Below, piece after piece: positions 18,012 to 40,617 of a stretch of 64,000 nt of DNA. The position numbers and the translations under genes were made by a program. Under the pieces are notes generated by a model. That model was not told where the DNA came from, made no database searches, and saw nothing but the letters and a program-made list of their open reading frames with translations. How positions within the stretch are numbered: position 1 is the stretch's first letter; each line of letters starts with the position of its first letter. The DNA is from Acinetobacter phage vB_AbaM_ME3. The stretch lies in sequence record KU935715.1; one strand, given 5' to 3'.

Positions 18012-18013
18012 AA

Positions 18014-18718: not shown

Positions 18719-19042
18719 TTAAGTAATCACTTCATCTAATGTTTTATAAAGGATATTTGATTCTTCTTTTTTACAAAATAATCCTTCTCCAGGAATTCGA
18801 TAAATTACCTTTTGAAGATCATAGTCTTTCTCAACTAAAATAGTAAGATAACCGTCACTATATATATTCATATTATTAATAACAGATTGAGCACAATGAC
18901 GTTTATAATAAACATGAAGTCGTGATCTACGTGTAGTATCTAAAGTTAATACAATAGAATCATTAACTCCTGATAATAATTCATATAGTTCATATTCTAA
19001 TTTTAAACCTTGAAAAGACTTAAACTTTTGTAAACTATTCAT
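18719..19042 (-). CDS. paralog family A member (MNSLQKFKSFQGLKL...)
   Basis: Leader motif. Confidence 0.5.
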   Translation of the reverse strand: MNSLQKFKSFQGLKLEYELYELLSGVNDSIVLTLDTTRRSRLHVYYKRHCAQSVINNMNIYSDGYLTILVEKDYDLQKVIYRIPGEGLFCKKEESNILYKTLDEVIT

Positions 19043-19406
19043 ATACTTCTATAAACTCTTCTTCTCGTATATCTCTAATAATACATCCTCTACCTGGATA
19101 TTCATCATATTTACGAGACATAACTTTGCTATCATTTTGAAGTAATTTAACTATGTCACCTGACATATGTAAGGTACAATTATTTTTAAAAGGAATTTTT
19201 AAAGAATCTTCTTCACAGTAATTCCTGTTGGTTTGAGTATAAAAACTAATAGCTTCTTTAAACTCAGGAACATCTTCTCTAGACATGTATTGTATATAGA
19301 TATTTTTATAAGTTCTTGAATGTTCTAATACACTGTTATAGACATCTTTAGTAAATTTAATAGAAGGTGGTAATTTGAATTTAGATAGTTTCATATTGAT
19401 CCTCAA
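19035..19406 (-). CDS. paralog family A member (MKLSKFKLPPSIKF...; HMSGDIVKLLQND); start probably internal Met at ~19394
   Basis: Leader plus SGD motif. Confidence 0.55.
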   Translation of the reverse strand: MRINMKLSKFKLPPSIKFTKDVYNSVLEHSRTYKNIYIQYMSREDVPEFKEAISFYTQTNRNYCEEDSLKIPFKNNCTLHMSGDIVKLLQNDSKVMSRKYDEYPGRGCIIRDIREEEFIEVYE

Positions 19407-19740
19407 GATTTATTTCAATTACTTCATCTAAGTCACTTAAGTCATCAATTGAACTAATTATATAATCACCTGTAACTCCTCTAGCCATACATGCATTAGA
19501 GTTCAATTTATCTATAATGCTTCCGCATATAACTAAAGTATTATTTTGAAAAAGTTTAATTATACCTTTTGTATCTAATTGCATTCGTTTCCGAGGTATG
19601 GAATACAAAGAAAATTCATCTCGATCAAACCAGCAAGCATACATAATATTATGAGCTTTAGAATAGTTTATAAAGGTATCATAGAGGTCTTTAGTTATTT
19701 TTATAGATTTTGTATCTATAAATTTTTGTAATTTATTCAT
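19381..19740 (-). CDS. paralog family A member (MNKLQKFIDTKSIKI...; VICGSIIDKLNSN)
   Basis: Leader plus (I/C)(S/C)G motif. Confidence 0.55.
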   Translation of the reverse strand: MNKLQKFIDTKSIKITKDLYDTFINYSKAHNIMYACWFDRDEFSLYSIPRKRMQLDTKGIIKLFQNNTLVICGSIIDKLNSNACMARGVTGDYIISSIDDLSDLDEVIEINLEDQYETI

Positions 19741-20071
19741 AATATATTTCTATTAATTCATCTTGAGATACTAATTCTTTATCAATTATTTCATACACAT
19801 TTTTAGATATTCTAGATAAACATACAGACTCATTTAATTGTTGAGCAACTGTACCACATATAAATAATAAAAAGTTATTTTCAAATCTTAAACATATATC
19901 ATTTACAGCTTGATAATTTGGAAGAGCTTTACTATACAGCACAATAGTACTACTACCTTGCTGTTGTATAACTAGTACCTTCTGCATAGCAAAATTATGA
20001 GAGAGATCAAGTGCTACTCTATGTGTTATGAATACACTTTTACGAATTTTAAATTTACTCAATTGCATCAT
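19733..20071 (-). CDS. paralog family A member (MMQLSKFKIRKSV...; FICGTVAQQLNES)
   Basis: Leader plus ICG motif. Confidence 0.55.
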   Translation of the reverse strand: MMQLSKFKIRKSVFITHRVALDLSHNFAMQKVLVIQQQGSSTIVLYSKALPNYQAVNDICLRFENNFLLFICGTVAQQLNESVCLSRISKNVYEIIDKELVSQDELIEIYYE

Positions 20072-20375
20072 AACAGTCTATTTCTATAACTTCTTCAAAA
20101 GTACTATTAAGAAAAACATAAACCCCTGGTTCTTTTCTATATAAATATTTTCCTTCTTCTATATCTAAACTATTTAAATAGAAGCGGGTTTGATCTATAT
20201 AGAAAATTACATATCTATCTAAAGAAAATTTTTTTGGACGACGAGTTCCTAAATATAATCCTTCATCATTAGAATAAAAATAAAAATCTCTTGAATTAAA
20301 TTTAGTCAAAAATTGGTAAAAAGAATGTGTAATTAATAGGGTAGTTTTAATTTTAAAAGACTTAAGAAAAGCCAT
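20055..20375 (-). CDS. paralog family A member (MAFLKSFKIKTTLLI...)
   Basis: Leader motif. Confidence 0.5.
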   Translation of the reverse strand: MAFLKSFKIKTTLLITHSFYQFLTKFNSRDFYFYSNDEGLYLGTRRPKKFSLDRYVIFYIDQTRFYLNSLDIEEGKYLYRKEPGVYVFLNSTFEEVIEIDCYDAIE

Positions 20376-20685
20376 AAATTTCTATCTCCATAATTTCTTC
20401 GTCTACATTATGAAGAAATTGATAATCAGCAGCACCTAATCTATGTAAAATTTTTCCTTGAAGAATACTTTCAAAATGTTCGGGATTTAATAACATATTA
20501 GAAGTTCCAATTCTAAATCTAATATAATTTATTCTTGAAACAGGTCGAATCATTTGAAGTCGCATACCACTATCACGATTGTTAACAAAAGTTAAAGGAC
20601 TTAACTCTATATCATTTATAAATTTATATGTTGACTTCGATATACGTATTACAGAAATTGTTTTGAATTTATTAAGCTTCTTCAT
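20362..20685 (-). CDS. paralog family A member (MKKLNKFKTISVIRI...); the ORF-track 5' extension to 20772 is probably spurious
   Basis: The family-consistent start MKKLNKF at 20685 avoids a 100-nt overlap with the upstream ORF. Confidence 0.5.
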   Translation of the reverse strand: MKKLNKFKTISVIRISKSTYKFINDIELSPLTFVNNRDSGMRLQMIRPVSRINYIRFRIGTSNMLLNPEHFESILQGKILHRLGAADYQFLHNVDEEIMEIEIYGFS

Positions 20686-21013
20686 CAATGATTTCAAAAC
20701 TCCTAAAAGGTATATCAGTTTTAATAAACTTAGATACAATTCCATCCTTAACCAAAGCAGTACCTTCTTCAATACTATTTAAATGCCTTCTTGTTATATA
20801 GCATTTAATATTATCAATATAAAAATGTACATAAGGTCCTAAATCATAATGCCTTGCTAGATACATAACCCAACGATCAGCATCCATATGATAATATGTA
20901 AGGACAATCTCAGTTTCTTCATATCCTTCAAGATGATGTTTTAGTTCAGTAATCAAACTATCTGTTATGTTAATAACTTTAGAAAAAGTTTTAAACTTAT
21001 TAAATTTTTTCAT
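20672..21013 (-). CDS. paralog family A member (MKKFNKFKTFSKVINI...)
   Basis: Leader motif. First gene of array 1. Confidence 0.5.
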   Translation of the reverse strand: MKKFNKFKTFSKVINITDSLITELKHHLEGYEETEIVLTYYHMDADRWVMYLARHYDLGPYVHFYIDNIKCYITRRHLNSIEEGTALVKDGIVSKFIKTDIPFRSFEIIDEEA

Positions 21014-23399: not shown

Positions 23400-24845
23400 T
23401 TATGTTCTTTGTTGAAAACCAAAACCAGTATTTACTAATTCTGTGCTTTCATTTTCACGTCTACCTGCTAATAAAGCAAATAGATTAGCTAAAGTAATAC
23501 GATCTGGAAGACTTTCTTCTAAGTCTAAACGATCACAACGATTTAGTACTTTAACTGCTTGTTCTTTATGCAATGCATCTACATGAATAGCTTTATAGCA
23601 ACGGCCTTCACGTAATAGAGCTTCATCAACATCTGCTAAATTATTTAAGTTAGAAGTAAAGATAACTTTCTTTTCTTTCTTAGCTGTTAATCCATCAGTG
23701 ATGTTAAGAAGTTTTTTCATCACTTCATTACCATCTTTCTGACGACTATTAATATAAGTATCAGCATCTTCAATAATTAAGAATCGTTCATCACTATCAT
23801 AGAAATGAGAGAATAACGAATCCATATTAGCAATATCTTTATTGTATGTGATTAAACAAGATTCATTAGCATAATGTAAAATTTGCTTTAATAAACTTGT
23901 TTTACCAGTACCTGGAGCTCCATACAATAATAACACAGCTGAATCAGATTCTAAATAGCCATTAATAAAATCTTGAAGATTAATATCATTTAAGAAAGGA
24001 TAAGCTTCTTCAATAAAAGTCTTATTACGAGGAATTGGAATAGTTTTAATATTCAAATCACCTGACTGTGTAATACGATCAACCCATTGAACTTCAACTG
24101 TCTTAGGTTTTAATTCTAATAAAGGGTGAAGTTCTTCAGCTAATGTAGTAGGCATGATTGCATTATTAATAAAGTAATCAGCAGGAACCTTATGAGTATG
24201 TTCAATAGATATAAAACCACCATCCATTAAAATCTCATAATGCTTTTGAAGCTTTTCACCATAATGAGTAAATACTGTTAAAGCTTTTGATTTAGCAAAT
24301 TCTAAAATAGCTTCAAATGATGCTTTTGTAATTTCAGTATATGTATAAGTAGATAAAGGAATTCCTTTATCTAAAGAATTTTGTTGAATATTAACTAGGT
24401 ACTGCATACCGAATGAAGCAGTAACAATACTAGGACTTAAATTATTTTGAGAAGTCATTGGAGGGCTCATAGGAATATTATATACAGGTACTTTAGTATA
24501 AGCTGGATTTACATCTGGTGAATGATAATAGTTAGGACCACTTACTGCGTAGACATGCTTGCCTGTATAAGATACTTGAAGATCATATGAATCTCTGGGG
24601 TTAGCATTGTACTGTGGACCAACCCCTGTAAGAGTATTATAAATAGACTTATTAAAACTTGAAGCAGTAATTTGTCTTAAAAAAGTTCTATAATACATAG
24701 ATACGTAACTAATACGATCATATGAATTTAACTCTCCAAACTCATTATTAACAGTTGGAGAAACACCTTCAACAATTTTAAAAGCGTTTCTAAATATAGA
24801 CATTATTTGAAATGGTCTATGTCTTCGAAGAGTTACTCTTGCCAT
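23400..24845 (-). CDS. AAA+ ATPase domain protein (481 aa)
   Basis: Walker A LLLYGAPGTGKTSL and Walker B-like FLIIEDAD in the C-terminal half. Confidence 0.6.
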   Translation of the reverse strand: MARVTLRRHRPFQIMSIFRNAFKIVEGVSPTVNNEFGELNSYDRISYVSMYYRTFLRQITASSFNKSIYNTLTGVGPQYNANPRDSYDLQVSYTGKHVYAVSGPNYYHSPDVNPAYTKVPVYNIPMSPPMTSQNNLSPSIVTASFGMQYLVNIQQNSLDKGIPLSTYTYTEITKASFEAILEFAKSKALTVFTHYGEKLQKHYEILMDGGFISIEHTHKVPADYFINNAIMPTTLAEELHPLLELKPKTVEVQWVDRITQSGDLNIKTIPIPRNKTFIEEAYPFLNDINLQDFINGYLESDSAVLLLYGAPGTGKTSLLKQILHYANESCLITYNKDIANMDSLFSHFYDSDERFLIIEDADTYINSRQKDGNEVMKKLLNITDGLTAKKEKKVIFTSNLNNLADVDEALLREGRCYKAIHVDALHKEQAVKVLNRCDRLDLEESLPDRITLANLFALLAGRRENESTELVNTGFGFQQRT

Positions 24846-26678: not shown

Positions 26679-27017
26679 TTAATCCTCTAGAAGATCTCTA
26701 AAAATTTGTTCTCTTGTTCGTCCTGTCGTTAAATTAGGAACACGTCCATATTCAGAAAAATCAGAAGGTATTACCCTTGAATTCCTAAGTCTTGTACGAC
26801 TTTCTTCTCGGACATAATACTCATTAAATAGACGAGCATCAGTAGGAGGTAGACAACTAACAGAGCCTATTTCAGTCATAGTTGCCAGTAGTTCTTGAAT
26901 TTCTTTTGCCCATAAAGGATCATCTCTAACAATTTTCTTAAATTTAAGAAATGTTCCTTTTTTCTTCGATGGAGGATAGAAAAAAGGAAACCCTATAGTT
27001 GTAATATCATCCATCAT
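26679..27017 (-). CDS. hypothetical protein (112 aa)
   Basis: ORF-track ORF. Confidence 0.5.
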   Translation of the reverse strand: MMDDITTIGFPFFYPPSKKKGTFLKFKKIVRDDPLWAKEIQELLATMTEIGSVSCLPPTDARLFNEYYVREESRTRLRNSRVIPSDFSEYGRVPNLTTGRTREQIFRDLLED

Positions 27018-27417
27018 TTAGATAAGTCTCCAAGCAAGGATTAATACCTTCAGTAGTACCTGTAATTAACGTAGGTTGTCTTATAGGATAAGATGCTGAA
27101 GTTAATGTAAACATTGGAGGACTATAAGCTGTATTTAATTCAGCTCTTTGTGGTCTATACCTATCAGATAACATATATCCATAAAGTTGATCAAGTAAAA
27201 GATCATTTATTAATTTGGAAGTTTCATTCCAAGAACCTTCATACACACCATCTAGCCAACATTTAGAATCTTCTTCTATTAAAGGATTAGTATGAACAGT
27301 AGTCTTAAATTTATTAAGTTTTTGACCTTTATCTTTTTGTTCTTCAGGCTTGGTATATTTATAATATTTAATTTGAATAGGAGTTTCTAGTCTCCAATTT
27401 GAATAATCTCTTCTCAT
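27007..27417 (-). CDS. hypothetical protein (136 aa; contains an internal QKLNKFKT leader-like motif)
   Basis: ORF-track ORF. Confidence 0.45.
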   Translation of the reverse strand: MRRDYSNWRLETPIQIKYYKYTKPEEQKDKGQKLNKFKTTVHTNPLIEEDSKCWLDGVYEGSWNETSKLINDLLLDQLYGYMLSDRYRPQRAELNTAYSPPMFTLTSASYPIRQPTLITGTTEGINPCLETYLNDG

Positions 27418-30254: not shown

Positions 30255-30453
30255 CTTCTAATATCTCAATAAAAGGGTGTTGATTTCCAGAGGAATCAAT
30301 AAGCGTAACACCTACATGATTCCCATCATCCCCTTTAAAACCAACATATACAGCTGTAAAGCTAATAACTTTATTAACTACAGTGTAAGGCTTATTGATA
30401 GAAACTTTTCCACCAAATGTAAGATAAGGTTGTTCAGTAAATTGAATAATCAT
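30241..30453 (-). CDS. hypothetical protein (70 aa)
   Basis: ORF-track ORF. Confidence 0.4.
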   Translation of the reverse strand: MIIQFTEQPYLTFGGKVSINKPYTVVNKVISFTAVYVGFKGDDGNHVGVTLIDSSGNQHPFIEILEDDAN

Positions 30454-30851
30454 GTATAAATTCCAACTCGTAATTTCTCTGAAAGTTTTAAATCATAGTC
30501 ATTGAAAGCACCAGCTCCATAAAGAACATGAGTTCTTTCTTCTAAACTTTGAAGAATTTTATAACGAAGAGTAGAAGCGTATTCAATATCTTGATGAATT
30601 CCAGGTCGAACAAAGTTACACCAATTAATGTACATTGTAAAAAACTCTGAATTATCAATTGGCTCTTTTATTCTTAAGAACTGTTCTACTTCTTCAACTT
30701 TAAATATTTGCTCAGTCTTAGAGTAAGTATTAAAGAATGTATAAGAAACAATTTCACCTTTTTCATTCTTTGTTATCTTACGACATACAAATCGAATCCA
30801 ATGCTTAGCTTCTACTTGAATTATGTATTCACGTTCTTTTCTGAAATTCAT
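30450..30851 (-). CDS. hypothetical protein (133 aa)
   Basis: ORF-track ORF. Confidence 0.5.
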   Translation of the reverse strand: MNFRKEREYIIQVEAKHWIRFVCRKITKNEKGEIVSYTFFNTYSKTEQIFKVEEVEQFLRIKEPIDNSEFFTMYINWCNFVRPGIHQDIEYASTLRYKILQSLEERTHVLYGAGAFNDYDLKLSEKLRVGIYT

Positions 30852-30854: not shown

Positions 30855-31112
30855 TTAACCTTTATAGTTTTTTAAAACTACTAAACATTTATCCCAATTC
30901 TCTTGAGCACCATTCCAAAAGCCAACTGATGTATCAAATATTTTACTTAACTTCTTACAATCTTTGTCAGTTAATTTTCTTCCACTTGTAACTAATGTTA
31001 CAAGATAATTGATGTGCTTTTTACGAATATTGCCAACTTGTAATTGCATACAAAGCATTTTTAAAATTGCTTCATAAGGATTATCAGGTTTAAGTGGAGT
31101 AATAAGACTCAC
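30855..31112 (-). CDS. hypothetical protein (85 aa)
   Basis: ORF-track ORF. Confidence 0.45.
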   Translation of the reverse strand: MSLITPLKPDNPYEAILKMLCMQLQVGNIRKKHINYLVTLVTSGRKLTDKDCKKLSKIFDTSVGFWNGAQENWDKCLVVLKNYKG

Positions 31113-31525
31113 GAGATTTCCTTAAAACTTAAGTCGTTATTAAATAAAACAACTCGGATAGCGACAATATGAGGAACTGCACCCATTGAATTTGAATTGC
31201 AAAGGTCTGTATCAACATCCCACAATCCTGTTAATCCTTTCGTATCAAGGATCTCTTGATAACGATTAATTAAACTACGATCAATTAGATTACATTCTTC
31301 ATCAATAGTAGGATGATACTCAATTGTAATTTCTTCTAAAATCTTAGAGTACACATCTGAAGGTTGCCAAGTTCCATCTATATAGACATGCTGTTGTTCA
31401 TTTTCCTTGGCAATGAAGATTGTTCCATACTTATCAGCACATAAACAATGAGTTGCATATTTCCAAGGCTTTTTATTCATGTCATCAGTGATAAGCATAA
31501 TGCACCTATTGAGATTTAGGAACAT
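31109..31525 (-). CDS. hypothetical protein (138 aa)
   Basis: ORF-track ORF. Confidence 0.5.
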   Translation of the reverse strand: MFLNLNRCIMLITDDMNKKPWKYATHCLCADKYGTIFIAKENEQQHVYIDGTWQPSDVYSKILEEITIEYHPTIDEECNLIDRSLINRYQEILDTKGLTGLWDVDTDLCNSNSMGAVPHIVAIRVVLFNNDLSFKEIS

Positions 31526-31937
31526 CCGTTAAGTCGACTTTTACATCAACATCAGGAATAATTGATTGAGGTTTAAAGATAACGCGATAATGGTATGCAC
31601 TTACATTAGCACTATTCAATTGTTCACTAAAGTAAGTAACATTATCAGATAAGCCTAATGAATGTTTTTTATATTCATTAGGCCCAGTCTTACACATTAC
31701 ATCAACTTTACGTCCATTTTCATTAGGAGTAAAAGAACACTTACCTTCAATACTGAGAATGTAATCACTCGTAATCCCATTATAGAACACAATACGACGA
31801 TCAATTTCAAAGTTATCAGCAGCTGTAGCTATATTTTGTGATACTGTTTGAGCATCATTTTGTCCACAAGCTGTTAACGCTAAAGCGGACATAGCAATGC
31901 CAAGTCCAAGAGTTAATTTTTTCATTATACCATCCAA
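31506..31937 (-). CDS. lipoprotein (143 aa)
   Basis: Signal peptide with lipobox LTAC (MKKLTLGLGIAMSALALTACGQ). Confidence 0.6.
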   Translation of the reverse strand: MDGIMKKLTLGLGIAMSALALTACGQNDAQTVSQNIATAADNFEIDRRIVFYNGITSDYILSIEGKCSFTPNENGRKVDVMCKTGPNEYKKHSLGLSDNVTYFSEQLNSANVSAYHYRVIFKPQSIIPDVDVKVDLTDVPKSQ

Positions 31938-32101
31938 GGTTTAAACCAATGTAAAGAAATTAAATACATAATAAAAAGTATTAACCAAATGCTTAAAGTA
32001 TTTCTTAATATTTTAACTGGTTTAATTAAAATAGAACTTAATACAACTACTAATATATAAACTAGTAAACCAATTGAAGACCATACAACTAAGTTGTCCA
32101 T
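31935..32101 (-). CDS. small hydrophobic membrane peptide (~55 aa), translationally coupled (TAATG) to the lipoprotein gene
   Basis: Minus-strand ORF MDNLVVWSSIGLLVYILVVVLSSILIKPV... Not in the ORF track (<60 aa). Confidence 0.35.
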
Positions 32102-32946
32102 ACATTACTCTCTATATAAGACTGAAGTTGTTGAGAAATGTTGTCAAATTCATCATCATTTGTATAAAAGAATGGATTAGTATGATGACCAACTTGATAC
32201 CAACCTTCAGCTTCTTTTACTTTACGAATAACACCTAAAGAGCGACCTTCCTTGTCTTCCATTTCCCAACCAAAACGTTCTTCATATAATGCAATACCAC
32301 AAGGAGAAACGTAAACTAATGGTTTTCGAACAATTTTACAAACGGAATAGACATAGATTAAATCAATATCAGGTTCATTATAAAGATAGTCAGCTTGGGA
32401 TTTTTGATTTCCAATATAACTTCCCCACTTTTCCCAACGCCAGCCACCACTTGGAGGTTGATGTTCTTTAAAAATAGGAGTTAAGAAAATACAATATTCA
32501 TCATCTTGTTGTTCAAGCCATTTATACATTCGATAAACTTGATCTTCATTATCACAAACACCATAACCTTTAAAATAATATTGATCTGTATAGGTCTTTT
32601 GAAGCTTTTGTAATTCAGCTCTAGAAAGATCTTTAACAGCATCCCAATGTTTTAAATGAAATTCAGTCTGACGGAAACCTAGCGCTTTACGAAACTTACG
32701 ATTTCGTTGATCAATTGGTTTACTTAATTTAATACGAGTTAAATGAGTTTCAATTTCGTATGAAGGGGGAGTACAAATATGTGGGTTTAAACTACCACAG
32801 ATCATGATACCTTTATATTTTGTTGCATAGAATCTTTCTCCATTTTGATAATCAATATACTTATGCATTGATTCTTCTGGAAAAGCTTCTTTAGCTTTTA
32901 GAGCATATACAGGATGATAGTGTTCAGAAGTAACATTACTTAACAT
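32089..32946 (-). CDS. hypothetical protein (285 aa)
   Basis: ORF-track ORF with a TAG stop. Confidence 0.55.
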   Translation of the reverse strand: MLSNVTSEHYHPVYALKAKEAFPEESMHKYIDYQNGERFYATKYKGIMICGSLNPHICTPPSYEIETHLTRIKLSKPIDQRNRKFRKALGFRQTEFHLKHWDAVKDLSRAELQKLQKTYTDQYYFKGYGVCDNEDQVYRMYKWLEQQDDEYCIFLTPIFKEHQPPSGGWRWEKWGSYIGNQKSQADYLYNEPDIDLIYVYSVCKIVRKPLVYVSPCGIALYEERFGWEMEDKEGRSLGVIRKVKEAEGWYQVGHHTNPFFYTNDDEFDNISQQLQSYIESNVWTT

Positions 32947-33319
32947 TTTCAGATATCCAAGTTTGAATAGCAGATGGAGAAGTTAAATTTACAACAACAT
33001 TTAACTCATATTTATTATTAGAAATTTCATAAATAACTAAACGAGAAGCTTCTGATAAAATTGAATCAGGTAACAATGATGTAAAATTATCATGAACAGA
33101 AGCCATAAGAGTAAAACCAGGTCGAGATGGAGCTGTGTCTTTCCAACTATTACTATACAAATGTAGATCAACTGTACTTAATCTATTCCTTCTATTAAAT
33201 CCACTCCCAAATCTCCAAGTTTCAAAAAGACTACTATAAAAGGCTACAACGTATCTTTTATCTCCTTTCACAACTTCTGAAAACTTCATTAAAGGTTTAA
33301 GAATATTCATCGTAGACAA
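32936..33319 (-). CDS. paralog family B member (ASVHDNFTSLL motif)
   Basis: Shares the (A/G/T)S(V/I)H.(N/D)L..LL motif with ORFs at 34028, 37016, 37362, 37711 and 38094. Confidence 0.5.
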   Translation of the reverse strand: MSTMNILKPLMKFSEVVKGDKRYVVAFYSSLFETWRFGSGFNRRNRLSTVDLHLYSNSWKDTAPSRPGFTLMASVHDNFTSLLPDSILSEASRLVIYEISNNKYELNVVVNLTSPSAIQTWISENVK

Positions 33320-33669
33320 ATTCCTAGAGTCTTTTCTAGAGATTCTATTGTTGGTTGATGAATATCATATATAAGTTTTAATTCATCTTTAGAAATGAAA
33401 GTCTTTTCTGTATCAAAAAATGAATATACTTTAAAAGATGTAATAGCGGATGCAGGAACTTGCATAATATTTAAAATTGCAGCACCTTTTAACTTATCTA
33501 AGCTATCAATTGGATAAGCATGTCCAGAGACATTTTCAATCCTGATAATCCTAGAAGGTAACTCTGAAATTCCACTATTTAAATATACTTCATGTAGAAT
33601 TCCAGCGTTCGAAACCATTACAGAACAGATATACTGTTGAGGGTTAGAAAATCTGCTTAATCGTCGCAT
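33307..33669 (-). CDS. paralog family C member (C-terminal ESLEKTLGI motif; MRRLSRFSNPQQY leader)
   Basis: Leader plus a C-terminal motif shared with ORFs at 33657 and 38467. Confidence 0.5.
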   Translation of the reverse strand: MRRLSRFSNPQQYICSVMVSNAGILHEVYLNSGISELPSRIIRIENVSGHAYPIDSLDKLKGAAILNIMQVPASAITSFKVYSFFDTEKTFISKDELKLIYDIHQPTIESLEKTLGICLR

Positions 33670-34049
33670 TCAATCTCCAAGGCTTCAAATAAAGATTTAA
33701 TAGTTGGATTAGTAAGCCTATGAAGAAGTGACAATTCATTTTTTGCATACACTTTATTCTCATAAGGAGGTAAAGCATATATTTTAATTAGATAAACACT
33801 TCTTCTTGGGTCTGAAAGTATTTGTAAAAGATTAGATTGTTTTAATACATTAGGATCTGTAATAACAAAAGCTAATTGAAGATAAACAGGCATATCACTT
33901 GTTACTGAATGATTAATTGTAACTCGACGTACAGGATTTTCAGTTAAAGAGTGATATAAAAATACTTCATTAGAATCAACTAAAGATTGAATAGAGATAA
34001 CATATTCCACATGAGATTTAAATTTCTTTAAATATTTTGTCTGATCCAT
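33657..34049 (-). CDS. paralog family C member (MDQTKYLKKFKS...; C-terminal KSLFEALEI)
   Basis: Leader and C-terminal motif. Confidence 0.5.
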   Translation of the reverse strand: MDQTKYLKKFKSHVEYVISIQSLVDSNEVFLYHSLTENPVRRVTINHSVTSDMPVYLQLAFVITDPNVLKQSNLLQILSDPRRSVYLIKIYALPPYENKVYAKNELSLLHRLTNPTIKSLFEALEIECDD

Positions 34050-34396
34050 TCTTCTATCTCTTCTTGGGATTTCAGATTTGCAATAAGAGAAGGGTATTCA
34101 TAATACTCTTCAAAACCATAGATTTGAATTGATGTTGATCTTTCAATAAGAGACTTACTAAGTAAAGCTATAAAATTTGTATGAACTGAAGTTGTTAAAT
34201 TTGCAGAGCAAATGTTCTCATGAAACTCAGGAAACATTCTACGAACATTAATACAAGCAATTCGATTCTTGGAATTAATTGCGGATGCATAAATCCAGTC
34301 CGAATCCAAACTATCTTCATAGAGTTTGGATTTAAAAAGAGCAAAAAACTTAGAAGGAAATCTTACAGAAGGCTTAAATATAGATAATATTCTCAT
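34028..34396 (-). CDS. paralog family B member (MRILSIFKPSV...; TSVHTNFIALL)
   Basis: Leader plus SVH motif. Confidence 0.5.
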   Translation of the reverse strand: MRILSIFKPSVRFPSKFFALFKSKLYEDSLDSDWIYASAINSKNRIACINVRRMFPEFHENICSANLTTSVHTNFIALLSKSLIERSTSIQIYGFEEYYEYPSLIANLKSQEEIEEWIRQNI

Positions 34397-34528
34397 ATAT
34401 AGCCTAGGTGTTTTAAAAACATATATGTAATAACAAAACCTAAACCAACAGCAGATAGATTAGTCTTAGGTTTTTCTACAAATAAACTAATTAAAATAAA
34501 AAGAGAACCTAAAACTAAAAAGGGCATA

Positions 34529-35608
34529 CTATTTCCTTAATTCGTTAGGAACAATTCTTTTAAATCGCCAATGGTTACTTCCATCAGCAATATGATTTGC
34601 TCTAACTAATTTACAAAGTTTATTTCGAAATTCAGAATAATGAAAAGATTTAGTTGTACGAACTACTATACCTTCATGTCCTGCTTTAACAACTTGTTTA
34701 AATAAATCATTAATTACAACTTCATCGTATGGTCCTCGATATATTTCTTGAACCATTGTCATACCTAACAATTCAAACCATTCTTTTGTATCATCCCAAG
34801 ATAGACATATGTCCTTATCCCACACTTGGAATCCGTACAAATATGAATCTAAATCTTGATAATGAATTGCATGTTTAGCATATAAATTCTCTGCATAGTA
34901 ACGCATACCTTCAGGAATATTATAAGCAATATGTTGATAATGGAAGTTCTTTGCCCAAGCACGAGATTCATGATCTAAAGAATCGATAGAACGAGCATGA
35001 CAATAATCGGGGTATCCCGCAAAGTTCTCTCCATCCATTTTAATAGTTATTACAATTTCATCAGATACTAAATGATGTGATATATTGTAATTAGTTTTAT
35101 CATCTTCAGTTTTATGAGCACTTAAAGGATGATGATACGAACGAGGATACTTGTAATAATGAGTAAATTCATCTAGTACTCCGCCATCAGATAAAACTTT
35201 CTGAACTGATTCATCATAGAATAATGGACCAGGCATTCTCTTACCATTAAGAAGAATGATGTTACCCCATTTATCATATTGATGATCAGGGTACATATAT
35301 TCAGGAAGAACAACTTTTTGAGCTCCTACCTTCTCTCTTACTTCATCACAACTAATAACTGTTTGTTCGCACTTTAAATGACAAGAATCACAGACGGTAC
35401 CAGCGTTTTCGATATGATAGCCAAAACAATCCGAAAATAAACGTCTTTCGACAATGTGATGCACAGATAATTTCTCTGTACTACCACAGAAGATACACTT
35501 GTGGTTGTCTCTTATTAAACCTTGTTCTCTAAATTCATCTCTAGATAAAGGTTTCCCATCTGTTCCATGACAACCACAAATTGTTGAGTGAGGTTTACTA
35601 GATTTCAT
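34529..35608 (-). CDS. HNH-type zinc-finger fused to an ATP-dependent RNA/DNA ligase-like nucleotidyltransferase domain
   Basis: N-terminal CxxC...HH...CxxC (CIFCGSTEKLSVHHIVERRLF...CDSCH) HNH-like motif. Central TIKMDGENF resembles the ligase adenylation motif I (KxDGxN/R). Confidence 0.45.
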   Translation of the reverse strand: MKSSKPHSTICGCHGTDGKPLSRDEFREQGLIRDNHKCIFCGSTEKLSVHHIVERRLFSDCFGYHIENAGTVCDSCHLKCEQTVISCDEVREKVGAQKVVLPEYMYPDHQYDKWGNIILLNGKRMPGPLFYDESVQKVLSDGGVLDEFTHYYKYPRSYHHPLSAHKTEDDKTNYNISHHLVSDEIVITIKMDGENFAGYPDYCHARSIDSLDHESRAWAKNFHYQHIAYNIPEGMRYYAENLYAKHAIHYQDLDSYLYGFQVWDKDICLSWDDTKEWFELLGMTMVQEIYRGPYDEVVINDLFKQVVKAGHEGIVVRTTKSFHYSEFRNKLCKLVRANHIADGSNHWRFKRIVPNELRK

Positions 35609-35991
35609 ATTGGATTACCTTTTATTACTTTAATAATATCCCATCTAGAGACACCTTGATCAAATATAGTAACTTTAAAAGAAGAGAAGTTAACAGAGTT
35701 ATTATCATCGACTTCATATTCACATATTGCAATCTGATTGACACTACTAAAGTATGGTGAAAAATCATCAACAATTGTTTCTAATGAGGATGTTAATGTT
35801 ATTGAACCAGTATGATTAAAATTATGTTTTTCTATTTGAACCCTATTAGTTCTGAAATATTTTAAGCCTTGACATGACTTTAATGCCATACCATGCCAAT
35901 TTTCAAAGTAATCAGGAACAAATGAATTTAAACGATAGAAAAGTCCATAGTACTTTTGAGTACATAATTTATATTTTTCTAAGTATTTCAT
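35605..35991 (-). CDS. hypothetical protein (128 aa)
   Basis: ORF-track ORF with ATGA overlap to the ligase-like gene. Confidence 0.5.
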   Translation of the reverse strand: MKYLEKYKLCTQKYYGLFYRLNSFVPDYFENWHGMALKSCQGLKYFRTNRVQIEKHNFNHTGSITLTSSLETIVDDFSPYFSSVNQIAICEYEVDDNNSVNFSSFKVTIFDQGVSRWDIIKVIKGNPI

Positions 35992-36006
35992 TTTGTTCCT
36001 GTCTAA

Positions 36007-36225
36007 TTAAATTTCTGTAGAATCTAATTGAAGAACAATAGTTTTAATGATAGATTCTTCGTCTACCATACGAAAAACAAGATGCTTAGTTACAACTAAT
36101 TCTTCAATTTGTTTTTCAGTTAAATTATAAAAATAATTTAGTTTAGAAGTTAATTCTTCCCGACCATTTGCAATTAGAGGTAGGTTATCTCCAACTTGGA
36201 CAGATACTAAATATAAAGTAGCCAT
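36007..36225 (-). CDS. hypothetical protein (72 aa)
   Basis: ORF-track ORF. Confidence 0.45.
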   Translation of the reverse strand: MATLYLVSVQVGDNLPLIANGREELTSKLNYFYNLTEKQIEELVVTKHLVFRMVDEESIIKTIVLQLDSTEI

Positions 36226-36234
36226 AATTATTCC

Positions 36235-36648
36235 TTAAATAATTAATTTAAAATGCTCTGGATTACTATCCAAATTTAAAGTTTCACTACGACCATAACA
36301 AGCTAGCCCATTAGTGAATCCAGCACTTAACTTTTTACGAAAATTTTCATCTACATACTGGACGGCATCAAACATAAAATCATGGTTAATACTTTTACTA
36401 AATAGTACTATTTCCTGAACACCATTTTCATTTTCCATACAAATATATTTCAATTCATCACGGAACATTGGTTTGTAGTCTTCAATAACTTCAAGAATTT
36501 TACGTTCTGGTCTAATCCAAATCCCACGAGTTCCATGTTTAATATATTGAAGATTCTCTCTAAAAGCTTGAAGACCAATAGATGAAGAAACAATAAAAAC
36601 TTCTTCTTGTTCAGTGTGGAGATTTAAAGTTTTAATCTTGATCATCAA
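36235..36648 (-). CDS. hypothetical protein (137 aa)
   Basis: ORF-track ORF. Confidence 0.5.
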   Translation of the reverse strand: MMIKIKTLNLHTEQEEVFIVSSSIGLQAFRENLQYIKHGTRGIWIRPERKILEVIEDYKPMFRDELKYICMENENGVQEIVLFSKSINHDFMFDAVQYVDENFRKKLSAGFTNGLACYGRSETLNLDSNPEHFKLII

Positions 36649-36970
36649 AAGTTATCTCTTGTTCAATAGATAATAATTTAGCTTTAATTGCTTTCGTTGC
36701 CTCTTCTAAGAAGAAACCACGTTCATCGTCTTCAAAGTAACCATCACCTTTTGTATTAGCAGAATATATAGTTTCTCCACCACAATCAGGATAATCAACA
36801 CGAAAGTGACCATGACGAAGTCTTAAATAACCAACTTGAATACCATTGGAAAAGACTTCATATTGTTCAGGACAAGCTGTACATGTTTGTACAAATGTAA
36901 ACTCAGTCATATTATTTCTTCTTAAAAAAGAAACGAGTAATGAGTCCACCAATAATAGTTTTGACAACAA
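36632..36970 (-). CDS. hypothetical protein (112 aa; N-terminal hydrophobic segment, Cys-rich)
   Basis: ORF-track ORF. Confidence 0.5.
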   Translation of the reverse strand: MLSKLLLVDSLLVSFLRRNNMTEFTFVQTCTACPEQYEVFSNGIQVGYLRLRHGHFRVDYPDCGGETIYSANTKGDGYFEDDERGFFLEEATKAIKAKLLSIEQEITFDDQD

Positions 36971-37015
36971 ATAAAGTGACTGTTTTAAATATAGACCACA
37001 TATAAATTCCTAAAA

Positions 37016-37357
37016 TTATTGAAGAGATTGATAATATTCATTTACCTCTTGTCTGGTTTTTAAATGAATAATAGGTGTTAAAGTTTTATCTGAATGGTAG
37101 TAACAGATAACAGCTTGTTGAGCAAAGCGTTGAACTCCTTTAGACATTAAATCTTTTAAATTTTCATGAATAGAAGCTGAATGATTTATAGGAGAATATT
37201 TTTTAGCTACATCACATTTTTGTGAAATAATACTAGATCCTACCCTATTCGCTGCATTGTATCCTAAAGCATATTGCCAACGAGATTCTGTTAATTCTGT
37301 AAAAAGTACAACATATCTAGGAATAAATTGCGTTTTAAAATTAGATAATTTTTCCAT
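37016..37357 (-). CDS. paralog family B member (MEKLSNFKTQF...; ASIHENLKDLM)
   Basis: Leader plus SIH motif. Confidence 0.5.
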   Translation of the reverse strand: MEKLSNFKTQFIPRYVVLFTELTESRWQYALGYNAANRVGSSIISQKCDVAKKYSPINHSASIHENLKDLMSKGVQRFAQQAVICYYHSDKTLTPIIHLKTRQEVNEYYQSLQ

Positions 37358-37361
37358 ATTA

Positions 37362-37727
37362 TTAAGAACCTAGAGATTGTTTAAACTCTCGAATTTGCTC
37401 TTTAGTTTCAAGTTTTTTATATTCGTGAAGATTATAAATATCATCAACTTTAGTTACAGAACAAATAATGATTTCTTGAGAAACTAACATTATATTCGAA
37501 CTTAATAAGTTATTAAGATTCTTATGTAAAGAACCTCGATTATTAATAACTTTATAAGTTTGCATTACTTGATCTTCAGGATCAATATAACATCGTCCTG
37601 TAGAATGTGATGCATTAAACCCTAAGCCTACTTGCCAACGAGGATATCTTTCTTCTCTAAAGAGTACAACATATTCTCCAGTATCAATTTGATTTAAACT
37701 TTTTGTAAAACTATTTAACTTTTTCAT
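37362..37727 (-). CDS. paralog family B member (MKKLNSFTKSL...; GSLHKNLNNLL)
   Basis: Leader plus SLH motif. Confidence 0.5.
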   Translation of the reverse strand: MKKLNSFTKSLNQIDTGEYVVLFREERYPRWQVGLGFNASHSTGRCYIDPEDQVMQTYKVINNRGSLHKNLNNLLSSNIMLVSQEIIICSVTKVDDIYNLHEYKKLETKEQIREFKQSLGS

Positions 37728-38115
37728 AATAGTCTATCCAAGGCTGAAGATGTTCTAAGTCATGTTGTCGAATAAATGCAACGATATTATGAGAAGTTAA
37801 ACTAGTTAGTGATCTAATTTCTGATAAATCAGGAGATAATTCAATAATAGTTTTTGACCAAGATATAGGAAGACTAGTAGGTAAAAGAGTTTTCAAATCT
37901 TTATGAACAGAAACTGTATTATTTATCAAGTCATGCATAATTCTATAATCATTTAACACTTCACTTTCTGTATAAACTTTAACGTGTCTACTTCGTTCAG
38001 TTGCGTTTAATCCACTAGCAAACATATCACTAATGACTAATGCAAATACAGAATCAAATTGAAATCGATTTTGTACATAACTTTTAAATTTAATTAGCTG
38101 TTGTTGACTCGCCAC
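37711..38115 (-). CDS. paralog family B member (QQLIKFKSYV...; VSVHKDLKTLL)
   Basis: Leader plus SVH motif. Confidence 0.5.
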   Translation of the reverse strand: MASQQQLIKFKSYVQNRFQFDSVFALVISDMFASGLNATERSRHVKVYTESEVLNDYRIMHDLINNTVSVHKDLKTLLPTSLPISWSKTIIELSPDLSEIRSLTSLTSHNIVAFIRQHDLEHLQPWIDYYEKVK

Positions 38116-38483
38116 TCTTCAGCCTCTTGTATATTTTTGAAATGAAGAATTTCATGTACTACAGGTTCACCTTTATAATAACGATATACTTTAATTTCTT
38201 TAAAATAGTTATCTTCTACAATTTCTTCAGAAATTAAAGTTAGAAGATTATCATGAACAGAAGCTTGAGTATTTTGACTATCACATGCTTTATGTAATTC
38301 TGGGAACATGTCTTCAACATCTATATATGTAAGTCGATTATCAGATGTTACACCATCTCCATATTCCCAATAGCAAACTTCATAATCTGTTTCATCGTCA
38401 TAATGATTTTCATCAAATCTGAACAGCATGAAATAAAGAGGATCACCTTTTAAGGCAGGGTTAAAATTATCTAATCGTTTCAC
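38094..38483 (-). CDS. paralog family B member (MKRLDNFNPAL...; ASVHDNLLTLI)
   Basis: Leader plus SVH motif. Confidence 0.5.
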   Translation of the reverse strand: MKRLDNFNPALKGDPLYFMLFRFDENHYDDETDYEVCYWEYGDGVTSDNRLTYIDVEDMFPELHKACDSQNTQASVHDNLLTLISEEIVEDNYFKEIKVYRYYKGEPVVHEILHFKNIQEAEEWRVNNS

Positions 38484-38853
38484 GTTTAATCTTAATTCCT
38501 AAATTTTTTTCAAGATCTTCTAATTTAGGATTGGTAAAAGACCAATACAATTTTAAATCAGAAGGAGTTAACTCAGTATCAGATGTAGTCTCAATAAGAA
38601 CTTCATATATTTTAATACTTTGAACATTTCCTTGATTAAATACTTCTTGAGTTACAGCATTAAATTGAAAAGCAGTTTGAAAATCTTCAAATACAGTTAC
38701 AGATGAAGATATTTGTCTGCTAAACATTCCTTCTATATAAGCTTCAAAACCTTCTTTAAGAGAGCTACGTAGAAATACATCTAGAATGTTATGAGAATCT
38801 AAAGAAACAACATATTGACTTCTTTTAGAAAATTTATTTAATTTAGCCATCAT
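38467..38853 (-). CDS. paralog family C member (MMAKLNKFSKRS...; C-terminal EDLEKNLGI)
   Basis: Leader plus C-terminal motif. Confidence 0.5.
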   Translation of the reverse strand: MMAKLNKFSKRSQYVVSLDSHNILDVFLRSSLKEGFEAYIEGMFSRQISSSVTVFEDFQTAFQFNAVTQEVFNQGNVQSIKIYEVLIETTSDTELTPSDLKLYWSFTNPKLEDLEKNLGIKIKRETIR

Positions 38854-39742
38854 GTTCTCTTTGATAATTATCCAAAGTTTTTGTCAAACTATTGAATATA
38901 ACTCGAAGAGAAAATTCATGATCTGTATTTTCTACAATATGTTTAATCTGATCTAAAAGGTTAATGCAACCTTTCTTACGTTTTTCTACTTTACAAGGTT
39001 GTTGCTGTGATAAGTAATCAATCAATCGTTCTAAACTTCGTTTAACACAAGATACATTGTTTGTATAGATGTAATCACCTTCAATCATTGTATCGTTATA
39101 AGAAGTTGGTAATCGAATTTCTCCTATACAACCATTTTTAATATGTTCTTCAGTAATATATTTAAAATAATTAGATGGAAGAGGAATACGGAAAAGATGC
39201 TGTTTAACTTCAGAAGAACAGATCATATCTTGAGAATGTTCATTGAAATAACGTCTATAAGTTGAAAAATCATCAGCTTTATATGTTGGAAAATTTGCAT
39301 CAACTAAAGCGTCATCTTTAGGTAAGTCTACATAACAACTTGCATATGAATAAGCTGCTGCTTTACTAACAGCATTCTTACTACATTTAATTGATTTAAT
39401 CTCTTCTTTAGAGAAAACAAATCTACTAGAAGTTTTAATTACCTTTCCATTTACTAATGTAATTTCAATTTCTTTTCGATTACGATTATGAACAATAGAA
39501 AAAGTAGTATTTAAATATGGAATAACTACTACATAATCTTTATTACTCTTCTCGTCTGGAATAAGAGTGCTATTCATATTTACAAAATTAATAGCAAATA
39601 TTTTTTCAATCATAACTACCACCTGATGATCCACTGTCACATGAACTTGATCCTGAATCTCCACCAGAACAAGATGAGTACCCACCACTATAATCATAAT
39701 GACTAGAAGTTGATGGACTACTATGTGAAGGAGAAGTTTCAC
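38843..39742 (-). CDS. hypothetical protein (299 aa, N-terminal hydrophobic segment)
   Basis: ORF-track ORF. Confidence 0.5.
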   Translation of the reverse strand: MKLLLHIVVHQLLVIMIIVVGTHLVLVEIQDQVHVTVDHQVVVMIEKIFAINFVNMNSTLIPDEKSNKDYVVVIPYLNTTFSIVHNRNRKEIEITLVNGKVIKTSSRFVFSKEEIKSIKCSKNAVSKAAAYSYASCYVDLPKDDALVDANFPTYKADDFSTYRRYFNEHSQDMICSSEVKQHLFRIPLPSNYFKYITEEHIKNGCIGEIRLPTSYNDTMIEGDYIYTNNVSCVKRSLERLIDYLSQQQPCKVEKRKKGCINLLDQIKHIVENTDHEFSLRVIFNSLTKTLDNYQREHDG

Positions 39743-39983
39743 TTTTAGTAGTCTTTTTATTATTTCTGGTCTTTAGTAATTTATCAACAATTGTGGGAGG
39801 GGAGGAAGTTTTTGAAAGAGATCGAGACAATTTATTATATTTAGAAATAAGATTTTCATAGCTCTCTTTCAAAAGTAAATTTGCAGAATTAGCTTGAGCA
39901 AGTTTTCCATTTAAAGATAAAGCTTTAAAAATTAAAATAATATTAGAGACTAATAAAACTATTAAACAAAAAGTACTAAACAT
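39606..39983 (-). CDS. membrane-anchored protein with Ser/Gly/Cys-rich low-complexity C-terminus
   Basis: N-terminal TM helix. C-terminus SSCSGGDSGSSSCDSGSSGGSYD. Overlaps the upstream ORF by ~137 nt, so the start is uncertain. Confidence 0.4.
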   Translation of the reverse strand: MFSTFCLIVLLVSNIILIFKALSLNGKLAQANSANLLLKESYENLISKYNKLSRSLSKTSSPPTIVDKLLKTRNNKKTTKSETSPSHSSPSTSSHYDYSGGYSSCSGGDSGSSSCDSGSSGGSYD

Positions 39984-40016
39984 AACAGGATTTTTCCATA
40001 ATTGCTACTAACATAA

Positions 40017-40592
40017 TCATTCGAAATTAATTCCTAAACCTACTGCACGTAACATTTCAAATGTGAGTTGAGGATGGGTATGATGAATTGCATGACCACC
40101 AGCTTCAAGCCATTGTTTAATAGTTCGATCATAATCATCAATTAGTAAAGAGCCAGATTCAGCAAATACTTGTTTCTCCGCACTACCTTTAGCAAAGTTA
40201 ACTTTCAACTTACAATCGTAAGCTTTTAACCAACTAAGTTTTTGTCTTTCTAATTCTTCACGATGACTATTATACTTCATAGTTGAAGTTAAGATTTCAA
40301 CTTCTATACCTTGTTTTAACCAATGAGGTACATAAACTAAAAACATTTGTAATCCAAAATTAGTAATTGGAGCAGTTTCAAATAATTTTTGTTCAATACA
40401 TTTATTAATTAAAGGAAAAACAACTTTATTTTTATAACCTAAAACTTTAGCTTTTAAGATTTCAGTTGTTGTTCCTTTACCTAATTGTTCAAACATGCCT
40501 AGATCATTTACTAGAACACCATCCATATCTAAATAAATTTTTTTAATACTTGACATAAATATTCCTAATACAAAAAGAAAAGGAGAAGTCAA
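40017..40592 (-). CDS. HAD-superfamily 5'(3')-deoxyribonucleotidase-like hydrolase
   Basis: HAD motif I IYLDMDGVLV (DxDGV) near the N-terminus. Size and layout match phage 5'-nucleotidases. Confidence 0.6.
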   Translation of the reverse strand: MTSPFLFVLGIFMSSIKKIYLDMDGVLVNDLGMFEQLGKGTTTEILKAKVLGYKNKVVFPLINKCIEQKLFETAPITNFGLQMFLVYVPHWLKQGIEVEILTSTMKYNSHREELERQKLSWLKAYDCKLKVNFAKGSAEKQVFAESGSLLIDDYDRTIKQWLEAGGHAIHHTHPQLTFEMLRAVGLGINFE

Positions 40593-40608
40593 TTTTGACT
40601 TCTCCTTT
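40578..40608 (-). terminator. rho-independent terminator after the tail-fibre gene
   Basis: aaaggagaagtc-aatttt-gacttctccttt perfect 12-bp hairpin followed on the minus strand by TTCTTTTTG. Confidence 0.7.
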
Positions 40609-40617
40609 TGTAAAACG

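Follow-up and report, generated by a model that had tools for sequence, protein, structure and literature searches.

How can protein families whose bodies show no clear resemblance begin with one and the same short peptide? This question is raised by arrays of small genes in the Acinetobacter jumbo phage vB_AbaM_ME3, of which a stretch of 64,000 nucleotides, hereafter called the window, has been analysed. All the coordinates below are those of the window, and all the genes lie on its minus strand.

Small genes with a common leader

Nine genes at 32936-34396 and 37016-38853 form two half-arrays and fall into two families, B with six members and C with three. A preliminary description of this DNA had listed all nine at these places, but its count was too low, as a tenth gene with the same leader, X (35605-35991; MKYLEKYK, or MKRLEKYK in the related genome L001), is located between the half-arrays. 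The nine ORFs and X are true protein-coding genes. They are closely spaced and in most cases overlapping, so that translational coupling is probable, and B and C genes are mixed within the arrays, both in the window and in another related genome, L004. A third family, A, whose leader is as in B and C, occupies a 13-member array 12 kb downstream (16597-21013), in which 12 genes are intact and one is frameshifted (16964-17348). Families A, B and C together with X amount to about 23 small proteins of 106-134 aa. In two neighbouring fast-evolving genes at 26679-27417, the motif is internal, about 20-30 residues from the N-terminus (QKLNKFKT and TFLKFKK), and is conserved in relatives; the motif may thus be usable in another context.

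Family B corresponds to phrog_17379, a PHROG without annotation, the HMM of which matches all six members in full length, with E values of 1e-44 to 1e-48 for five of them and of 1e-6 for the divergent B5. Families C, A and X fall outside this PHROG, and a search with the C members and X gave no match to it. The motif of family B, first described in a narrower form, reads [AGTV]-S-[VIL]-H-x-[ND]-[LF]-x-x-L-[LMI] in the six members. B1 (32936-33319; P0001, ME3 gp205, 124 aa) probably starts from the ATG at 33310 (MNILKPLMKF). The next members are B2 (34028-34396, MRILSIFKP), B3 (37016-37357, MEKLSNFKT) and B4 (37362-37727, MKKLNSFTK). B5 (37711-38115, MASQQQLIKF) is 55% identical to its ortholog, and its predicted structure matches that of B6 with a Foldseek probability of 1.00 and a TM of 0.55. 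B6 (38094-38483, E value of 2e-48) is strongly acidic with a net charge of -16, and its GTG start (VKRLDNF) is kept in L001 and in a further relative, L002. In family C, the C-terminal ends of the three members read ESLEKTLGI, KSLFEALEI and EDLEKNLGI. These are C1 (33307-33669, MRRLSRFSN), C2 (33657-34049, MDQTKYLKKFK) and C3 (38467-38853), for which the second ATG, at 38850, is the probable start (MAKLNKFSK...).

The half-arrays are divided by a gene at 34529-35608, which had been taken to encode an HNH domain and an RNA ligase. This call is correct: the gene matches PF09414 (E value of 1.8e-23) and phrog_24030 (9e-193), and residues 25-91 match HNH PHROGs. The gene is 94% identical in L001 and absent from L004. 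Besides it, five small ORFs, and not four as first counted, lie between the half-arrays. One is X, and another is a hydrophobic ORF of 44 aa (34393-34527; 91% identity in L001). The others are unrelated genes, namely one of 72 aa (36007-36225; 88% identity in L001) and a conserved one matching phrog_8320 (36235-36648; 93%), both of which are also found in L004, and a conserved one matching phrog_21607 (36632-36970), which probably starts at 36910 (MTEFTF...) and shows 95% identity and a dN/dS of 0.08 to its L001 counterpart.

Selection on the leader

The leader of B, C, X and family A follows the consensus M-[KN]-[KQR]-L-[NS]-K-F-K. Its description as KL-x-KF holds as to a leader being shared, while the pattern itself is over-strict, its invariant part being L-x-x-F. 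Over 70 sequences, the first anchor is L in 66, F in three and V in one, and the second is F in 63 and Y in seven. The anchor Leu is at position 4 of the protein in 46 of the 70, and at position 7 in B1, B5 and C2.

Is such a short peptide anything other than an artefact of the nucleic acid or of composition, namely of AT codon bias, of an A/U-rich initiation enhancer, or of an overlapping upstream stop? The G+C content of the window is only 26-33%, and K, N, L and F can all be written with A/U-only codons. Nevertheless, [LF]xx[FY] occurs in the first 11 residues of all 22 family genes against eight of 65 others (two if L is required), and when the first 15 residues of the ten B, C and X proteins were shuffled with their composition kept, the motif was found in 1.2 of the ten on average and in five at most over 5000 trials, so that the observed count was never reached; AT-rich codon bias, which the preliminary description had named as the point on which a functional leader would fall, does not explain it. 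When all 68,679 six-frame positions were ranked by a position matrix trained on family A alone, five B and C N-termini came within the first ~35. At many junctions the upstream stop does lie inside the leader codons, often via the Leu codon (with overlaps of 8, 13, 14, 17 and 22 nt), but the leader is kept in members that do not overlap (A5, B3, X, A3 and A4), and there is no conservation upstream of start codons. As for the codons themselves, the anchor Leu is encoded by TTA in 26 cases, CTT in seven, CTA in four, CTC in four, TTG in three and CTG in one, the remaining two of 47 being TTT for Phe. Thus, C or G is present in about 40% of the anchor Leu codons. Their usage agrees with the genome-wide Leu usage and they differ synonymously between orthologs, which argues for selection on the protein; in accordance with the residue counts given above, Leu and Phe are not exchanged for the equally A/U-rich Ile and Tyr. 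The artefact is thereby largely refuted, and we regard it as extremely improbable.

Comparison among relatives tells the same about the peptide. Between orthologs, identity is 93% at the anchors, 74% at the other leader positions and 65% in the bodies; judged from these sequences, the leader is under purifying selection at the protein level. Apart from ME3 itself, no more than a few metagenome assemblies were found to have homologs of families A, B and C, and an exhaustive HMM search over 1.84 billion representatives gave 23 small proteins (113-139 aa) that are credible matches; of the 21 taken for comparison, 20 have L-x-x-[FY] near the N-terminus, the exception being P0046. Families B, C and X are ORFans private to ME3-like jumbo phages. 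In related metagenomic phages the synteny of the arrays is kept, fully in L001 and L003, and one-to-one orthologs of array members exist in at least three of them. The gene set is hypervariable among these phages by gains, losses and rearrangements of members: L003 has 15 copies of family A against 13 in ME3, and in L004 seven B genes and one C gene, in another order, stand in a single unbroken array, without the second half-array. Array members are 50-83% identical to their orthologs with a dN/dS of 0.21-0.70, against 88-99% for most neighbours and a dN/dS of 0.02-0.26; examples are C3 (59% to L001, 0.51) and X (58%, 0.38). Thus, the leader stays fixed while the bodies evolve several-fold faster than neighbouring genes, and the members appear, from these rates, to be under relaxed or diversifying evolution.

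Common ancestry or common function

Do the bodies share an origin that has become invisible? It might be supposed that A, B, C and X are one ancient superfamily of ~120 aa, which arose by tandem duplication and diverged very fast, and that the N-terminal peptide has no target but is the most constrained piece of a shared fold, for instance a strand at its edge or a surface for oligomerisation. All the members are of similar length (106-134 aa), in tandem on one strand and with the same style of junction, genes of B and C are intermingled in L004 as in the window, full-length profile comparisons reach probabilities of 62-80%, and at the observed rate of divergence bodies could fade past detection. 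After removal of the leader, however, hhalign gave P values of 0.028 (B-C), 0.036 (B-A) and 0.41 (C-A) with probabilities of at most 2%. The profile comparison proposed earlier brings out no robust resemblance between the bodies of the three families, in agreement with the earlier claim of distinct bodies behind one leader. A leaderless B HMM calibrated by shuffling was marginal only for C3 and X (p of 0.01-0.02, and ~0.02 for X alone), its best non-B matches in the window, which are collinear over the SVH-helix-strand region; X is possibly, on this sequence match, a very divergent relative of B. Family A gave no signal, with one of 27 members at p<0.05.

Predicted structures bear on the same point. 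The AlphaFold2 model of B6 has a pLDDT of 83.8 overall and of ~50 for residues 1-10, which is weak evidence of flexibility as the alignments are shallow (10-13 sequences). In the model of C3 residues 1-10 are at ~47, and with a pLDDT of 58 the whole model is too poor for fold comparison, though the predicted order of secondary structures is alike in B6 and C3 (strands, helices, two strands and a C-terminal helix). In neither model is any part predicted with less confidence than the leader, which according to the models is set apart from the globular domain that is predicted with confidence, and is probably flexible. The family B fold had no significant match among solved structures, and a PDB sequence search was likewise empty. 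Among ME3 proteins in BFVD, Foldseek with the confident B model found B paralogs only, a weak test because ORFan models may be poor, even B1 having E 0.46. In addition, the motif is internal in two more genes of quite different sequence, and even if ancestry is shared, such exceptional conservation of a leader needs a function of its own. A diverged superfamily keeping its most constrained element fits the length, tandem, fold-order and weak-match facts equally well, and we hold it to be a possible, if rather doubtful, account. A leader shared by dissimilar bodies, under purifying selection and outside the folded domain, argues for a functional peptide rather than an artefact of codon bias, so that this part of the preliminary description is supported.

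Possible partners and known targeting systems

What could such a peptide do? Secretion had been suggested, and Sec and lipoprotein signal peptides do have a basic N-terminus (MKK...) in common with the leader. This reading is rejected, as no hydrophobic h-region follows the leader: Kyte-Doolittle maxima over 12 residues are -0.01 to 1.9 (median ~0.8, mostly <1.3), against 2.1-2.3 in three bona fide signal peptides of the window, which speaks against a Sec, Tat or lipoprotein signal. A prohead-protease cleavage site, another earlier suggestion, was not found either; no L/I-x-E type motif follows the leader, conservation stops at the residue after Phe, and in 17 of the 22 members the 12 residues behind it are free of Glu. 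The reading we prefer, with a probability of about one half, is that the leader is a docking peptide for one common partner and the bodies are diversifying accessory or effector domains. The Leu and Phe (i, i+3), flanked by lysines, would insert into a pocket of the partner and dock all carriers onto it, and the variable bodies would serve in host takeover or counter-defence. The partner may be the prohead core, a chaperone, an unfoldase, a protease adaptor or a host protein, and should it be the prohead, a T4-like protease probably leaves the tag in place.

A more specific proposal, that the leader is an uncleaved tag for capsid targeting and ejection by which ~25 diversifying effectors are packaged and injected with the DNA, seems unlikely to us. 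Isoelectric points of the members range from 4.5 to 9.6; a uniformly basic, DNA-compatible character is thus absent, unlike in the 'highly basic' internal proteins of T4 (PMC8442874). The leader might also be an N-terminal tag for turnover or a chaperone, recognized by ClpXP, ClpAP or a phage AAA+/P-loop ATPase, which sets the lifetime of early accessory proteins and has nothing to do with packaging. The peptide is N-terminal, short, exposed, basic and hydrophobic as such a tag would be, and the arrays have two ATPase genes in their vicinity, AAA at 23400-24845 and P-loop at 14997-16097, of which the P-loop gene evolves at the pace of the paralogs (56% identity, dN/dS of 0.40). But proximity is weak evidence where the whole genome is on one strand, and a motif internal in two genes is more readily understood as a generic linear motif than as an N-degron, so that we think turnover quite improbable.

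Should the leader prove to be a portable address tag, ~25 ORFans, or ~7% of the 326 ORFs, would be named as cargo of a single pathway, which would give a testable handle on the dark matter of jumbo phages. If it is an uncleaved packaging tag, the phage would carry an arsenal for counter-defence, packaged beforehand and addressed through a portable peptide, effector tagging for co-injection would be suggested as a general strategy, and a new minimal tag would be at hand for loading proteins, including foreign cargo, into therapeutic Acinetobacter phages. Even with another partner, diversifying evolution, possibly driven by an arms race, seems to be displayed in the arrays as in a clean natural experiment.

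Comparable arrangements are known in other phages. Giant phage SPN3US has large tandem families of head-protein paralogs with conserved N-termini that were read as capsid-targeting sequences (PMC5694885); paralog family B of SPN3US and phiKZ has 2-20 members, and the N-terminal 15 residues of gp53 and gp54 are identical (PMC5694885). These and ME3 are alike as jumbo phages with big paralog families of varying size whose N-termini are most conserved. The head paralogs of SPN3US and phiKZ have been detected in virions by mass spectrometry, several with long cleaved AXE/SXE propeptides, whereas ME3 members are known from genes alone, are smaller and have no cleavage motif, which phiKZ-type targeting peptides do have. 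No Pfam family was matched by the B, C and X proteins at E<=0.01, and hence not PF12699, the SPN3US/phiKZ head family. The genome announcement of ME3 (PMC5000817) and the ME3-citing papers examined report no virion proteome, and its head genes are reported to be 0305phi8-36-like, not T4-like (PMC5000817).

In T4, the capsid-targeting sequence MKTYQEFIAE, ten residues long, is carried by diverse hypervariable internal proteins for loading into the prohead and injection (PMC3012670, PMC8442874). It ends in a prohead-protease site (...IAE) and is cleaved off, unlike the ME3 leader with no conserved Glu or cleavage motif, and its carriers are a handful against ~23 in long tandem arrays in ME3. In both phages, however, a short N-terminal peptide of ~8-10 residues is the sole clearly common part of small, otherwise dissimilar proteins, and these proteins evolve fast and vary between related phages. 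By eye, M-K-x-hydrophobic-(Q/N)-x-F is seen in both (Y4, Q5 and F7 in T4; L4, N5 and F7 in ME3), in a peptide too short for statistics. The T4 cargo consists of counter-defence proteins (PMC3012670, PMC8442874, PMC5694885). By analogy, the T4 sequence may be taken as the closest precedent for the ME3 leader, which, if it addresses proteins to the capsid, would be a second and unrelated case of the same principle in a phage with a 0305phi8-36-like head (PMC5000817).

The leader at the peptide level

The nine small ORFs of families B (32936-33319, 34028-34396, 37016-37357, 37362-37727, 37711-38115 and 38094-38483) and C (33307-33669, 33657-34049 and 38467-38853), all on the minus strand, are present where the preliminary description had placed them, and they share a short N-terminal leader with family A (array at 16597-21013, minus strand) and gene X. 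Aligned on the motif, 70 sequences (members from the window, orthologs of these from three related contigs, and distant family B homologs) give the consensus M-[KN]-[KQR]-L-[NS]-K-F-K. The first anchor is Leu in 66, Phe in three and Val in one, the second is Phe in 63 and Tyr in seven, and Leu occupies position 4 of the protein in 46 of the 70. In 22/22 family genes the pattern [LF]xx[FY] lies within the first 11 residues; the same is true of 8/65 other window genes, or of 2/65 if Leu is strictly required.

Can such a recurrence come from base composition or from the mRNA? The leader goes beyond AT-rich codon bias, which the preliminary description had named as the explanation to fear: when only residues 2-15 were shuffled, so that the AT-rich N-terminal composition was kept, the motif appeared on average in 1.2 of the ten B, C and X N-termini, and in five at most over 5000 trials. 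A position matrix made from family A alone places the N-termini of five B and C proteins (38467-38853, 37711-38115, 33657-34049, 37362-37727 and 37016-37357) in the top ~35 of 68,679 six-frame positions. Codons at the Leu anchor (n=47: TTA 26, CTT 7, CTA 4, CTC 4, TTG 3 and CTG 1, the other two being Phe TTT) are used about as Leu codons are genome-wide and differ synonymously between orthologs; upstream of their start codons the members are unrelated in sequence, and the leader is kept also where a member does not overlap the upstream gene. We regard an artefact of composition or mRNA as effectively refuted: the leader is a real feature of the peptide, without origin in DNA or composition. 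The leader codons differ from one paralog to the next, and gene conversion between 5' ends is rejected on that ground. Between orthologs, the anchors Leu/Phe are 93% identical, the remaining leader 74% and the bodies, that is, the proteins minus the leader, 65%.

The proposal of a functional peptide common to the families is thus supported by the 70-sequence consensus, the shuffles and the synonymous anchor codons. The accompanying idea of a secretion signal is contradicted, since no hydrophobic core follows the leader, which rules out a Sec or lipoprotein signal. A check for prohead-protease sites found no conserved cleavage motif after the leader, and 17 of the 22 members lack a Glu over the next 12 residues. 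Other readings considered are beta-clamp, PIP-box and ClpX-degron motifs; the clamp motif has a hydrophobic residue at position 4, where the leader has Lys.

It is to be noted that the motif is also found beyond the extreme N-terminus. Two adjacent ORFan genes on the minus strand (27007-27417 and 26679-27017; 136 and 112 aa) carry it internally, as …KGQKLNKFKTTVHTNP… and …KKGTFLKFKKIVRDDP…, with the copies QKLNKFKT and TFLKFKK about 20-30 residues in. The copies are conserved in relatives (the syntenic contig L003; the form in the more distant L004 is KKLPNYKTEV), and the two genes keep pace with the array members in evolutionary rate (dN/dS 0.47 and 0.53). They may form a fourth family, in which an N-terminal extension precedes this same motif.

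The arrays and their relatives

The two B/C half-arrays flank a gene at 34529-35608 (minus strand) that was correctly described as HNH plus RNA ligase (PF09414, E 2e-23; phrog_24030; HNH PHROGs at residues 25-91). With it lie a 44-aa hydrophobic ORF, three conserved small genes that are unrelated, and X (35605-35991, minus strand), which had been counted among the unrelated ORFs yet carries the leader as MKYLEKYK and is the tenth such gene of the locus. All six family B members match the unannotated phrog_17379, five with E of 1e-44 to 2e-48 and the divergent 37711-38115 with 1e-6, and have in common [AGTV]-S-[VIL]-H-x-[ND]-[LF]-x-x-L-[LMI]; the three family C proteins end in [EK]-[SD]-L-[EF]-[KE]-[TAN]-L-[GE]-I. 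A six-protein B profile retrieves, at 100% identity, the 'hypothetical proteins' FDH01_gp205 and gp202 of ME3 on a 234,900-bp contig. None of the B, C or X proteins has a significant match in Pfam, the ten family A members scanned have none in PHROGs, and PDB sequence profiles gave nothing below E 0.03.

All window ORFs of at least 90 aa, except one spurious antisense ORF, lie on the minus strand. The G+C content of the window is 26-33% across all 64 kb, while 40% is stated for ME3 overall in the genome announcement (PMC5000817). In both arrays, the lengths of overlap with the upstream neighbour recur (14 nt five times in family A, also 8, 13, 17 and 22 nt), and the stop codon of the upstream gene falls among the leader codons and often makes use of the one for the anchor Leu; the pattern suggests coupling by termination-reinitiation and a junction unit of fixed form that was duplicated. 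A promoter scan gave no enrichment (50 found, 54 expected). Directly after a 1183-aa tail-fibre-like gene, a strong terminator-like hairpin (40578-40609, minus strand; 14-bp stem, then a T-run) overlaps the start of the next gene, and because of it a new transcription unit probably starts with the B/C region. In a thirteenth family A member (16964-17348, minus strand), a single-base insertion near 17200 interrupts the gene and puts its N-terminal part (MKPLLKFNVSPC...) out of frame with the 92-aa ORF 16964-17242. Its ortholog is intact in a relative (127 aa; L003 13040-13423), and the split could be a homopolymer error, as ME3 was sequenced with 454, or a true pseudogene. With a net charge of about -16 and a pI of 4.5, the family B protein of 38094-38483 is extremely acidic, and it has an insert, FDENHYDDETDYEV, absent from its paralogs; both traits are reminiscent of DNA-mimic anti-restriction proteins.

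Homologs of A, B and C are found only in ME3 and a few Logan/JGI metagenome assemblies. Megablast of 32000-40000 and tblastn with 38094-38483 and 38467-38853 gave no match in an annotated phage collection from which ME3 and its kin are apparently absent, and a locus search of IMG/VR and JGI metagenomes by the ligase and a conserved 136-aa protein gave no relatives. An exhaustive HMM search added about 15 more distant small proteins (113-139 aa), and 20 of 21 fetched proteins keep both L-x-x-F and the SVH motif; a 2761-aa repeat protein, its score summed over 13 weak stretches, is spurious. Scanning IMG/VR DNA for M-x-K-L-N-K-F-K returned 104 scattered single matches and no arrays; the sole locus there with several leader-like ORFs is due to chance, its exact match being internal to a 533-aa protein.

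One relative, a 64,478-bp contig (L001/L003), is fully syntenic with the window and has a one-to-one ortholog of every paralog at only 50-83% amino-acid identity; for most neighbours, the ligase, DHFR, NUDIX and TROVE included, the figure is 88-99%. By the Nei-Gojobori method, leader-bearing genes have dN/dS of 0.21-0.70 and neighbours 0.02-0.26; the former are real and under purifying selection, yet their evolution is strongly relaxed or diversifying. Family A counts 15 members in the relative against 13 in the window. The more distant L004 (8.6 kb) has seven B genes and one C gene in a single contiguous array, without X, the ligase or any of the second half-array (32936-34396), and therefore the split by the ligase is a lineage-specific arrangement. 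The block without counterpart there, 30855-35991, runs from X through the ligase and the second half-array to a 285-aa gene and a VG64-like lipoprotein gene; a homolog of 30450-30851 follows the first array region of L004, with one 70-aa ORF between. Conversely, a ~308-aa gene present in all three related contigs (L001 590-1516, L002 1293-2216, L004 1281-2213), between homologs of a 5'-deoxyribonucleotidase-like gene (40017-40592) and a 125-aa gene (39606-39983), is missing from ME3 between 39983 and 40017.

Relation of the bodies and role of the leader

Is the leader then simply the structural N-terminus of one diverged superfamily? Some signals point that way. The best non-B matches of a leaderless B HMM in the whole window are 38467-38853 of family C and X, collinear across an 'SVH-helix-strand' region, with p 0.01-0.02 for that C clade and X in 300 shuffles per target, and the AlphaFold2 models of 38094-38483 (family B; pLDDT 83.8, pTM 0.77, confident) and 38467-38853 have secondary-structure elements in similar order, the latter model being poor (pLDDT 58). 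The same HMM was null against 33307-33669 and 33657-34049 of family C and against family A; leaderless hhalign gave P of 0.028 (B-C), 0.036 (B-A) and 0.41 (C-A), no probability exceeding 2%, whether profiles were shallow or deeper, and Foldseek against BFVD matched nothing but self and B paralogs. Confidence is lowest at the leader in both models (pLDDT about 50). The bodies come out as separate families in all the tests that could be applied, but a very old common ancestry is conceivable; a single superfamily with a purely structural N-terminus is somewhat unlikely in our judgment. Whether or not the bodies share ancestry, conservation of the leader needs a function of its own.

Our preferred reading, with a probability of roughly 0.5, is a common docking tag on diversifying accessory proteins. 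The leader would be a short linear motif in which two lysine-flanked residues, Leu at i and Phe at i+3, plug into a pocket of one common partner, and the variable bodies would be diversifying accessory or effector domains. What could the partner be? A P-loop/AAA-like NTPase lies two genes downstream of array A, after a NADAR gene (14997-16097, minus strand; 56% identity to its ortholog, dN/dS 0.40, unusually fast for an enzyme), and a second AAA ATPase lies between the arrays (23400-24845); to name either as the partner is pure speculation.

Precedents for a tag on diverse phage proteins

For ME3, a jumbo myovirus, the only description is a genome announcement (PMC5000817). A comparative study treats it as a singleton with 11 protein groups purely of ME3 proteins, 'perhaps gene duplication and divergence' (PMC5795418). 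The literature search found no paper mentioning a common N-terminal leader, and the A, B and C families with their tag are undescribed in the literature searched. They look like a new case of the theme of hypervariable phage proteins that bear an address tag. T4 offers the best precedent in its capsid-targeting sequence, MKTYQEFIAE, an N-terminal tag that is the sole conserved element of highly diverse, injected counter-defence internal proteins (PMC3012670, PMC8442874). Unlike it, the ME3 leader has no cleavage site, and its proteins have heterogeneous isoelectric points (4.5-9.6); that the docking tag would by this analogy specifically target the capsid or ejection seems quite improbable. 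The second precedent is the giant phage SPN3US, which has large families of head-protein paralogs of variable size, with gp53 and gp54 identical at the N-terminus (PMC5694885).
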